IMG/VR virus record: IMGVR_UViG_3300042566_000478
Span: 1 to 64,000 of that record
Reading direction: 5' to 3' (one strand)
Source: a virus
Length of the DNA stretch: 64,000 bases
The notes beneath the pieces were generated by a model. It had not been told where the DNA came from, did no database searches, and saw only the letters and a program-made list of their open reading frames with translations. This document shows positions 7,625 through 38,832 of the stretch, piece after piece (position 1 is the stretch's first letter; each line of letters opens with the position of its first letter). Made by a program: the position numbers and the translations under genes.

Positions 7625-7644
7625 CCTTTTTCCATAGAAATGCG

Positions 7645-7792
7645 AAAGCCCCAGATGCCACTCACAAGGAAGGCATTATCTGGGGCTCAATTCACACCAA
7701 AACCCAAATTGGTGTGGCATTACCTCTGCTATTACTCAGAGGCTCGCTTGGTTACCTGTCTAACGAAAGGAGGAAAGAAAACAGGCAACCAA
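7645..7792 (-). ncRNA. putative four-hairpin small RNA / structured 3' UTR with anti-RBS loops (element A)
   Basis: stems at 7748-7792, 7723-7742, 7693-7716 and terminator 7647-7687; G-U pair favours minus strand; loops UCUUUCCUCCUUUCGUU and UUUGGGUU. Confidence 0.65.
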
Positions 7793-7796
7793 TCCT

Positions 7797-8012
7797 TTAC
7801 CAAAGTGCTTTCACATACTTGTGTGTCTCTTCTGCAACAGCATCTTTGTGAAATGGGTCGTGCATTGATGAGCGAAGTGTTTCGGCAACATCAGAACGCA
7901 CATTGGACAAAACATTGAAGTACGCCTGACCGTACCTCCACGATGGTTTGAACTGGTGGTAGTACTTCTCAACACGCTCCATGAACTCTTCGTATGAAAG
8001 TTTCTCTTTCAT
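7797..8012 (-). CDS. hypothetical protein (WRYGQAYFN...DPF type)
   Basis: motif recurrent in small phage proteins. Confidence 0.75.
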   Translation of the reverse strand: MKEKLSYEEFMERVEKYYHQFKPSWRYGQAYFNVLSNVRSDVAETLRSSMHDPFHKDAVAEETHKYVKALW

Positions 8013-11728: not shown

Positions 11729-12027
11729 TGTTTGTTCCTCTTACTGCGAAGGTCTTTTCGCTTTCGTGCTGTAGTACCGCCCCAGATACCTAATTCGTAA
11801 TTATCTAATGCAAAGTTGAGACAACTTTGTTTGACAGAGCAGACATTACAAAACTGTTCAATAACAACTTTGTAGTGACCACCAGCAGAACCTTTTTCTG
11901 GGAAGAATTGGTCTGCATCAACTCCTCTGCAAGCACCTTTCTCCATCCATGTCATTGGTTCACGAAGAATAAGTGTTTTGCGAATCTCTTCTTGTTGATT
12001 GATGTAAATGCTCTGTGCTGAACTCAA
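11725..12027 (-). CDS. whiB: WhiB-family transcription factor
   Basis: W...GAC, FFP, CNVCSVKQSC, GIWGG; TTG start behind GGAGG (alternative ATG 11955). Confidence 0.9.
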   Translation of the reverse strand: MSSAQSIYINQQEEIRKTLILREPMTWMEKGACRGVDADQFFPEKGSAGGHYKVVIEQFCNVCSVKQSCLNFALDNYELGIWGGTTARKRKDLRSKRNKQ

Positions 12028-13208: not shown

Positions 13209-13607
13209 CCTCTGGAGCAGTATTTTTAGGTCAGGAAGTTCTTCTCCTATAAGGGGAATAATATCTACATCTATTTCATTGCGTAATGGGCGTGTTGTGT
13301 GAGCCCAATCACAATCATCACAAGCACAGCCTTGACGAAAGCGTACAACTGTTCCATGTTCAGCAAGATTGTTTGTTGTGTCCTTCTGTAGCGGTACACG
13401 CTCTTGTGGTGTTAGTCCACCCCACACTCCATATGTTTCTTTTCTTCCTATTGAGAGACACTCATCCCAAACAGGGCAGACATTACAAACTTGTTTTGCA
13501 ATGAGATAATTTATTTCTGGAGTTTGTGCGTCAAATGGTGGAAAGAAAATATCTCCATGCATTTTTCTGCACAGAGCATCCGACATCCATTCGGGAGTTT
13601 CTATCAC
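13194..13607 (-). CDS. whiB: WhiB-family transcription factor with C-terminal Cys/His extension
   Basis: WMSDALC, FFPP, CNVCPVWDEC, YGVWGG; extension HGT...GCACDDC. Confidence 0.9.
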   Translation of the reverse strand: MIETPEWMSDALCRKMHGDIFFPPFDAQTPEINYLIAKQVCNVCPVWDECLSIGRKETYGVWGGLTPQERVPLQKDTTNNLAEHGTVVRFRQGCACDDCDWAHTTRPLRNEIDVDIIPLIGEELPDLKILLQRLLEG

Positions 13608-36914: not shown

Positions 36915-37314
36915 TAAGGTACTTCTCCAATCGTGGGTCAAACTTCATCTGGTCTTGTGCGGTCTGCACTGTACTGCCCTGAACACGTGCGAACAACTCA
37001 CCTCTTCTTGCAGCAAATGCTCGCCACGGAGTTTCTTGTTCTTTTAATGGTGTTCGTTTAATATCATCAGCAAACAAGTCAATCATTTGGTAAATCTGTT
37101 CATGTGTTACCGAGTCTGCAACCATTGTGCTAAAGATTTTCATCATGGCTGGACCGTTAACAGGGGCGTTTAAAGACATAGACATACCAGAAGTCCTATC
37201 GTGAAGGTATGCAACTAAATCTTTAAGGTTCTTCTTCTTTGTTGGTTCAGCCTTCGGCTTGTCTTCATCAGCGCCGATTACTTTGACATCCCAGTCATCG
37301 TGTTTCTTTTTCAC
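36907..37314 (-). CDS. hypothetical protein (possible initiator C-terminal partner)
   Basis: lies between HTH initiator and loader. Confidence 0.65.
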   Translation of the reverse strand: MKKKHDDWDVKVIGADEDKPKAEPTKKKNLKDLVAYLHDRTSGMSMSLNAPVNGPAMMKIFSTMVADSVTHEQIYQMIDLFADDIKRTPLKEQETPWRAFAARRGELFARVQGSTVQTAQDQMKFDPRLEKYLND

Positions 37315-37826
37315 TCCGCCTCCAAGTTTTTAATCTGGCGCATCCACCTAGGGTCTTGAAGCATAAAAGTAGGAATTTTTCTATCTTTCTTTTTGGCTCC
37401 CTCTAGGGAATGATTAGTCTCTATAGATTGGGTGTCAGGGGTGACACCCTCCGAGGGTGTCGCTGGTGACACTAGGGGGGTGTCACTGCTGACACTATGG
37501 GGGGTGTCGCTGGTGACACCCTCCCTGGATTTCGGGTTGTTAAAGTCAACGGTGTACAAGTTTGTTTTGTTGTTTCCAGCCGAGGCTTTACGAATAGTTT
37601 TTCGGAGCACCCCAGCAGACTCAATCCGCTTCATGGCACGGATAATCGTGCTCCTACCCAAACCTGTCTTTTCAGCAAGGTGGTCGTAAGACGTAGTGAA
37701 TTGCTGTGTGTCATTGTCCATGTACTTCAAAGCGTTTACTAGTACGCATAGGGCTACTGGGTCGTTTCCGATGTACTCCATGACCCAACTTGGAATCGGG
37801 ATAAAGGTTCCACTGAACTTTGCCAT
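37311..37826 (-). CDS. HTH replication initiator (lambda O-like N-terminus)
   Basis: SYDHLAEKTGLGRSTIIRAMKRIESAG, TNLY; internal iterons. Confidence 0.8.
   Translation of the reverse strand: MAKFSGTFIPIPSWVMEYIGNDPVALCVLVNALKYMDNDTQQFTTSYDHLAEKTGLGRSTIIRAMKRIESAGVLRKTIRKASAGNNKTNLYTVDFNNPKSREGVTSDTPHSVSSDTPLVSPATPSEGVTPDTQSIETNHSLEGAKKKDRKIPTFMLQDPRWMRQIKNLEAE
37430..37521. repeat. four palindromic iterons GTGTC-N6-GACAC (putative origin)
   Basis: copies at 37432, 37457, 37480, 37504; AT-rich tract around 37365-37425. Confidence 0.8.
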
Positions 37827-37828
37827 GT

Positions 37829-37857
37829 TTGAATTTCTCCTCTTTGTGTGTTAACAT
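37829..37857 (+). promoter_or_regulatory. plus-strand promoter for element B
   Basis: TTGAAT-17 nt-TAACAT with TG extension. Confidence 0.6.
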
Positions 37858-37863
37858 TTGGTT

Positions 37864-37969
37864 ATGAGAAGGACTTCTTCCTTCTCTGCCATCCCTGGTT
37901 TCCCCTTTCTACAGGGTTGGCTTTTAGGATTGAGGGTGGCAGGGTTTCCTTCTTTGACCTGCCACTCTC
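37864..37969 (+). ncRNA. putative three-hairpin small RNA with anti-RBS loops (element B)
   Basis: stems 37866-37886, 37888-37921, 37932-37969; G-U pair favours plus strand; loops GUUUCCCCUUUCUA and GUUUCCUUCUUUGA. Confidence 0.65.
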
Positions 37970-37971
37970 TC

Positions 37972-38550
37972 CTATAACTGTTTGGTCTGAATAGACCCGT
38001 CAGAATAGACTGTAATCTGCATTACAGGCTTTACAACGGTCAAAACCTTCTCCATGCGTGGGGTAGACACTACTTCAGGTTTTGGCTCATCCTGGGGCTT
38101 CCTAGTGGCCTCTGAGGGGGTATGACCAGGGTCTACCGCTAGTGGAGCAAGCCCATTGGTCAGTTCCAAGCATTCAAGGTTTCGGTCACTTGCCCCAAAA
38201 ACCAGTTCTTTGGTCAGTTCCGTAGGTTCTCCAGACTCGTCTGTATCAAACAATACAAGGACTTTAAGTGTGTTCTCTGAGATGGTTTGGGCTTGTGCAA
38301 AAGCATCTTCTACAAGATTCTCCATGTGGTAGACAATCAAAGAAGCGTCAAGAACTGACGGGTGTACTTTTCCTGTTGAGTACACAATGAATTTTTCATT
38401 GCGAGTAATAAGCCAGTCAAGGACTCGTGCTTGACCTGCGGTTGGTTTACCTGTCCAAATGACATGGAAGCAAGTTCCTTGTGTGTCGTTCAGCCCAGTT
38501 TCAATTACGTTTGCGGAAGCGTTTCCTGTTCCACCGATTAAGTATTCCAT
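37972..38550 (-). CDS. hypothetical protein
   Basis: 192-aa ORF, AAGGA RBS. Confidence 0.75.
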   Translation of the reverse strand: MEYLIGGTGNASANVIETGLNDTQGTCFHVIWTGKPTAGQARVLDWLITRNEKFIVYSTGKVHPSVLDASLIVYHMENLVEDAFAQAQTISENTLKVLVLFDTDESGEPTELTKELVFGASDRNLECLELTNGLAPLAVDPGHTPSEATRKPQDEPKPEVVSTPRMEKVLTVVKPVMQITVYSDGSIQTKQL

Positions 38551-38559
38551 GTTGTTTCC

Positions 38560-38832
38560 TTATTTGATTGATTTTTTATGTGCCATATCTCCAGTTAGGG
38601 TGAGTAAGCGTAGCAGAGTGTGTACTGCTCCTGCAAGTGTCGCTACCACTAAACCTGACAACCATCGTTCATCAAAAGGAACAATAAAGATTGTAATGTA
38701 AGACAATATTGTTCCTGTAGTCACTTTAACCCAAGGCATTACTTCTTTTGGTAATAATGATTCAATAATTTGTAACGCTTTGTAAACGGCTAATGCACAG
38801 ATTATGTAGTTCATGTAAGTCCTGGAATCCAA
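38560..38832 (-). CDS. small multi-pass membrane protein (holin-like)
   Basis: three hydrophobic segments and basic tail; likely start 38814. Confidence 0.55.
   Translation of the reverse strand: MDSRTYMNYIICALAVYKALQIIESLLPKEVMPWVKVTTGTILSYITIFIVPFDERWLSGLVVATLAGAVHTLLRLLTLTGDMAHKKSIK

Follow-up and report, generated by a model that had tools for sequence, protein, structure and literature searches.

The question raised by this locus is whether the short spacer ahead of a phage replication initiator gene encodes an RNA of its own and, if so, on which strand that RNA is made and what it acts on. The window analyzed here is the first 64 kb (64,000 nucleotides) of a 91.8-kb IMG/VR virus record, and the minus strand holds nearly all of its genes. 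The locus, called element B, occupies a 145-nt spacer between two minus-strand genes, an upstream gene for a 192-aa protein and the gene for the initiator. An earlier note had seen in this spacer a plus-strand promoter and, after it, three hairpins with C/U-rich loops, the third of which was proposed to be antisense to the ribosome binding site (RBS) of the 192-aa gene.

The initiator (37311..37826, minus strand; start codon at 37824-26) is a 171-aa, lambda-O-like protein with an HTH_36 domain, and genes for a DnaC-like loader, DnaB, and primase lie downstream of it. Four palindromic origin iterons (GGGTGTC-n6-GACACCC, with a period of about 24 bp) are located at 37430-37534, within the initiator gene, and were kept there in all relatives, including one whose initiator is only 49% identical. 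Iterons inside an O-like initiator gene are, as far as their layout tells, the lambda-type origin arrangement. On the other side of the spacer, the 192-aa gene (37972..38550, minus strand), with its RBS 14-mer at 38554-38567, encodes a protein with a SLOG/DprA-like fold, and tail and baseplate genes are found further upstream. The structure model of this protein was confident for residues 1-140 (pLDDT about 90), which adopt a Rossmann-like SLOG fold, and the C-terminal 50 residues were disordered. The best matches of the model in the PDB were weak and included a Moco carrier protein (E 3e-4), DprA, LOG, and ShosA; the Atlas leads were YAcAr/DprA. A contig from the freshwater metatranscriptome run X20 was 99% identical to positions 38357-38513, a part of the 192-aa gene, possibly through DNA carry-over. 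The contig covers only those positions, which lie outside element B, and has no bearing on the element either way.

The host matters to the reading of promoters in this genome. Two WhiB-like genes (11749-11949 and 13395-13589, both on the minus strand) scored above the Pfam cut-off, and when the same test was applied to control genomes, Corynebacterium was the sole match. Because the phage carries two WhiB genes, the host is judged from gene content to be actinobacterial. The nearest relatives of the phage DnaB were the DnaBs of Streptomyces phages. The gene layout of Streptomyces phage Alone3 differs from that of the window and yielded no comparison, a blastn search against cultured phages gave zero matches, and the initiator had no relative among the bacterial genomes scanned.

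Folding of the plus strand gave the three hairpins that the earlier note had described. Hairpin a (37866..37886) has 8 bp and the loop CUUCU; hairpin b (37888..37921) has a loop at 37898-37911 that contains CCCCUUUCU; and hairpin c (37925..37974), presumed to form the 3' end of the RNA, has 12 bp and a 5-bp outer stem that takes in the stop codon of the 192-aa gene, with its loop at 37944-37957. The folding energy of the spacer was -57.4 kcal/mol (z -5.2) on the plus strand and -48.7 kcal/mol (z -4.9) on the minus strand, and neither value was matched by any shuffle. The loops were also pyrimidine-rich in the relatives, and the hairpins with C/U-rich loops are confirmed.

As relatives, protein and pattern scans yielded eleven usable sequences, which came from freshwater contigs of viral or metagenome origin. 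A covariance model of element B (R1), built on five close sequences, recovered every relative at E 1e-14 or better and found a single copy in the 91.8-kb genome, and a looser viral scan gave seven new loci, all of them at chance level and none matched by R1. In the model alignment of the eleven sequences, 95.9% of the pair cells were paired, and compensatory change, with both sides altered, was seen at 15 of 34 pairs, a count equalled by 0 of 500 shuffles. These changes comprise 5 of the 8 pairs in helix 1 (hairpin a), 6 of the 9 in helices 2 and 3 (hairpin b), and four in helix 4 of hairpin c, which was 100% paired on the plus strand and includes a conserved G-U. As a control, the pairing partners were slid by one to three columns, and pairing dropped to about 50%. 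Hairpin a of L007 kept its shape with a wholly different sequence. In L031, where the initiator is only 49% identical, the spacer retained all three hairpins; between the window and L031, the element was 73% identical, compared with 62-65% for the flanking genes. Element B is, on this comparative evidence, almost certainly a real, conserved, structured element under selection. The arrangement first proposed, a plus-strand promoter and then three pyrimidine-loop hairpins opposite the initiator leader, was both conserved and co-varying in 11 lineages.

Several other identities for the spacer were examined. A search with 4227 Rfam families, including 6C and C4, gave zero matches to the window at gathering scores, matches in 37600-38200 were at chance level (E 0.25 or higher), and no tRNA or tmRNA was found. 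No intrinsic terminator, in the form of a hairpin with a U-tract, was flagged at 37925-37990, where the plus-strand tail is UCCUAUAACUGUUUGG. A rho-independent terminator of the upstream operon would need a U-tract on the sense strand, and the sense tail after hairpin c, CUCAAUCCUAAAAGCC, has none. A plus-strand ORF of 48 aa (37848-37994) was rejected since the spacer lengths in the relatives (143-152 nt) differ by non-multiples of 3, as was a sense leader peptide from a 13-codon ORF after loop 2, whose start codon is missing in L003, L007, and L031. Loops with GGA of the CsrA type were not present in the L004-type loop c or in loop b of L007, and an initiator operator was rejected since the hairpin arms do not track the iterons.

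The promoter opposite the initiator was supported by its conservation, and not by its score. In Actinobacteria, the -10 element is TAnnnT, with or without TGn, and this rule is applicable here since the host is actinobacterial. The -35-like hexamer TTGAAT (37829..37834, plus strand) adjoins the initiator start codon, and TTGnnT was found at a spacing of 16-17 nt in 7 of 8 distinct lineages, a conservation that the translation start region may also constrain. The extended -10 element TGT-TAACAT (37849..37857, plus strand; TGn-TAnnnT) occupied one fixed position in all 11 lineages, at -31 relative to the initiator ATG (-30 in L031). Five different -10 hexamers occurred (TAACAT, TACGCT, TACTAT, TACGAT, and TATATT), such that the inner bases drift and the T, A, and T, together with the TG, are fixed. 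The predicted transcription start is an A at 37864, 7 nt after the -10 element. A "TA" was conserved 6-8 nt past the -10 element, with a conserved A at 7 nt (8 nt in L007), and 2 nt further on came the first helix, which began 8-9 nt after the -10 element in every lineage. Sense-strand TAnnnT elements within the spacer numbered zero in the 11 lineages. The full promoter, TTGAAT-17-TGT-TAACAT, scored only 8 of 12 and was not flagged by a consensus scan; thus, the place and sequence of the promoter at 37829-57 were borne out and its description as a good promoter, in the sense of strength, was not.

The earlier note had also regarded this promoter as the only plus-strand transcription signal, which proved incorrect because the window has ten plus-strand copies of TGTAATGT. 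This motif occurred 25 times in the window (1543-59007) against four expected, and its strand was position dependent, with 15 copies, all on the minus strand, as far as 19.2 kb and 10 copies, all on the plus strand, from 22.4 kb onward. One plus-strand copy, at 38692, is near element B. The motif includes the TAnnnT hexamer TAATGT, and its plus-strand copies could be additional antisense promoters.

Several features of the alignment differ between the two strands. The G-U pair of hairpin c (alignment columns 88/124), which had been noticed in the window as favoring the plus strand, was kept in 9 of the 11 sequences and is an A-C mismatch on the sense strand. G-U cells numbered 17 on the plus strand vs. 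eight on the minus strand, and paired cells amounted to 95.9% vs. 93.5%, in an alignment that had been fitted to the plus-strand model. Of 12 sequences, 11 had the more stable fold on the antisense strand, by 1.5-9.3 kcal/mol, the exception being L009, which folded better in sense. G-U pairs that favor the sense strand were found in hairpin a in L006 and in the L008 clade and in hairpin b in L005. From these comparisons, the fixed TGn-TAnnnT, and the near-constant distance between it and the first helix, we favor the plus-strand (antisense) RNA as the functional form, with fair confidence although short of proof.

The loops have an anti-Shine-Dalgarno character. Loop b contained CCCCUUUCU in every lineage, with CCCCCUUUCU in several; CCCCUUUCU is one base off the widespread 16S 3' tail, which is CCUCCUUUCU(A) (PMC6288834), and loop c was CU-rich in all lineages, so the anti-RBS flavor of the element is real. 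As the earlier note had reported, loop c (37944-57) matched 38554-67 at 13 of 14 positions. Nowhere else in the window did it find a match with at most one mismatch. When loop c was compared with 130 RBSs, that of the 192-aa gene ranked first by a margin of only 0.3 kcal/mol. In the L004 and L031 clades, loop c had diverged and the RBS of the 192-aa gene was unchanged, contrary to the idea that the loop would change with the neighboring RBS in relatives. The energies of loops paired with their own RBS were -14.5, -8.6, and -9.3 kcal/mol, and cross-lineage pairs were equally good. Because the match is energetically unremarkable and without co-evolution in relatives, the RBS of the 192-aa gene is a weak candidate for a specific target of loop c, and a role of loop c as a specific antisense regulator of it is not supported. 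A search of the window for targets of loop b gave nothing beyond chance, in agreement with the earlier view that this loop has no clear target there.

The explanation toward which we lean, with confidence only a little better than even, is that element B encodes an antisense RNA, about 110 nt long, that controls the initiator in cis. A host sigma-A-type polymerase would fire from the extended -10 promoter (TGT-TAACAT) on the plus strand at about 37864, and the RNA would fold into the three hairpins and probably end past hairpin c, near position 37975, where the upstream gene has its stop codon. As the spacer contains no sense TAnnnT or -10 element, the initiator probably shares a transcript with the SLOG-like gene upstream of it, and the plus-strand RNA would be fully complementary to the presumed initiator mRNA leader, that is, the sense spacer (37827..37971, minus strand), which carries complementary purine-rich loops and the Shine-Dalgarno (SD) sequence AGAGGAG at 37837-37843. 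The exposed pyrimidine loops may kiss the purine loops of the leader, after which a duplex would form and be cut (e.g., by RNase III, as with lambda OOP and the cII-O mRNA), or the output of the initiator would be otherwise lowered. In this way, the RNA would restrain or time replication at the iteron origin that the initiator gene contains. The predicted RNA ends about 20 nt short of the initiator SD, so perfect pairing would not block the SD, which makes its simple masking unlikely. A terminator of the attenuator type was not found before the initiator RBS. Antisense control of replication initiators is textbook knowledge for plasmids and lambda; for phages of freshwater Actinobacteria, no description of it is known to us. 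The hosts of such phages are mostly uncultured, and a candidate RNA that is conserved and co-varying, and whose start can be predicted precisely, would offer a testable handle on the replication timing of these phages.

The same structure could instead function within the sense mRNA, where it would lie between the cistrons of the 192-aa protein and the initiator and offer SD-like loops rich in purines (AGAAAGGGG, AAGGAAAC) as ribosome standby, protein-binding, or processing sites or as 3' stabilizers of the upstream message. The sense strand certainly lies within a gene-dense, one-strand operon, it folds well in its own right (z -4.9), several G-U pairs are specific to it, and its loop 2 can pair over 9 nt with the 16S tail (PMC6288834). 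However, a role in sense is difficult to reconcile with the conserved A-C mismatch in hairpin c (a plus-strand G-U pair in 9 of the 11 sequences) or with a fold that is weaker in sense in 11 of 12, and it leaves a position-fixed TGn-TAnnnT on the opposite strand unexplained. A termination role would have to do without a U-tract, and the GGA motifs of the loops are unconserved. We regard a sense-strand function as unlikely, though still to be reckoned with.

Two further readings are less probable. If the plus-strand RNA were mainly a trans-acting anti-Shine-Dalgarno RNA, its loops would bind the RBS of the 192-aa gene or many RBSs. The 13/14 match, sole near-match in the window and first of 130 RBSs, is in keeping with this, as are the near copy of the 16S tail in loop b and the existence in Actinobacteria of sRNAs that bind mRNA through C-rich loops, such as 6C (PMC6486639). 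We nonetheless consider it improbable, given the 0.3 kcal/mol that separates this RBS from others, loops and RBSs that have not co-evolved and whose cross pairs are as good as their own, and loop b targets that do not rise above chance. The other reading is at the level of DNA: the initiator would use the element as an operator or accessory site, or the element would be a direct repeat left when the 192-aa gene inserted. In the window, hairpin c has arms (GAGGGTGGC) that do resemble the iteron half-site GAGGGTGTC, and the 14-mer is present on both sides of the 192-aa gene, but the arms become GAGGGCGGT in the L004 and L031 clades and the iterons remain GGGTGTC. Covariation that preserves pairing, with G-U intermediates, points to RNA, and the 192-aa gene is present in all relatives, with no empty site known; a DNA-level element is highly improbable.

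The earlier note had grouped element B with a second locus, element A (7625-7800). Element A was predicted to fold better on the minus strand (-70.3 kcal/mol) than on the plus strand (-57.9 kcal/mol), its first minus-strand loop holds CCUCCUUUC, an exact copy of the 16S anti-SD core and tail, and a U-rich tail follows its last hairpin. The covariance model of element B did not match element A, its weak matches falling elsewhere. By these comparisons, element A is not a homologue of element B, and the two share a design, namely, anti-SD-like loops on the strand that is likely transcribed; the proposed single class therefore survives as a common design and fails as a homology. The sense loops of element B were not among the best targets of an element A RNA. 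That one genome has two unrelated elements whose loops copy the 16S tail is a hint of wider use of anti-SD RNAs by these phages. Both RNAs (A with CCUCCUUUC, B with CCCCUUUCU) might be ribosome-tail mimics that occupy many host and phage SD sites, a speculative and distinctly improbable reading that, if true, would mean a global shift in translation, e.g., toward leaderless messages, and not the control of one gene.

Known RNAs offer several points of comparison for an antisense RNA to the initiator leader. In phages P1 and P7, the loops of the c4 RNA pair with RBS regions, and this RNA shares the strand of its target, from which it is processed. Unlike c4 RNA, the RNA predicted from element B is on the strand opposite to its target, and element B has no match to the Rfam C4 family. 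The 6C sRNA of Actinobacteria pairs its exposed C-rich loops with G-rich mRNA sites without a chaperone and is trans-encoded and chromosomal (PMC6486639). Element B shares with 6C the host phylum and exposed pyrimidine loops and differs in that its loops are CU-rich, 11-17 nt long, and perfectly complementary to a cis target, with no Rfam match.

Closer likenesses were found among the RNAs that act on replication genes. RNAI of pT181, RNAII of pMV158, and RNAIII of pIP501 are countertranscripts that control plasmid rep genes; such RNAs lie opposite the untranslated leader of the initiator, have stem-loops as interaction sites and a promoter inside or at the leader, and, in the case of RNAII, are located between two co-transcribed genes (PMC5703833). 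The sequence evidence places element B in a similar position, opposite a presumed initiator leader, with stem-loops and a predicted leader-side promoter, and, as with RNAII, between two genes, which are probably co-transcribed. Unlike the plasmid countertranscripts, element B belongs to a virulent-type phage of 92 kb and has no attenuator-type terminator. In lambda, the tO-oop-pO unit lies between cII and O, and the pO promoter, immediately ahead of O, drives the OOP RNA, a self-terminating transcript of 77 nt that extends into cII at its 3' end and overlaps 52-55 nt of that gene (PMC3349717). The RNA predicted for element B differs from OOP in its length of about 110 nt, its three hairpins, the absence of a U-tract terminator, an overlap limited to the stop codon, the actinobacterial host, and the lack of similarity in sequence or in Rfam. 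Like OOP, it would be a short antisense RNA whose promoter lies immediately ahead of an O-type initiator gene with an iteron origin, and it would run against the main operon and toward the 3' end of the upstream gene. On this reading, element B would belong with the cis-antisense countertranscripts of replication initiators, not by homology but by likeness of kind.
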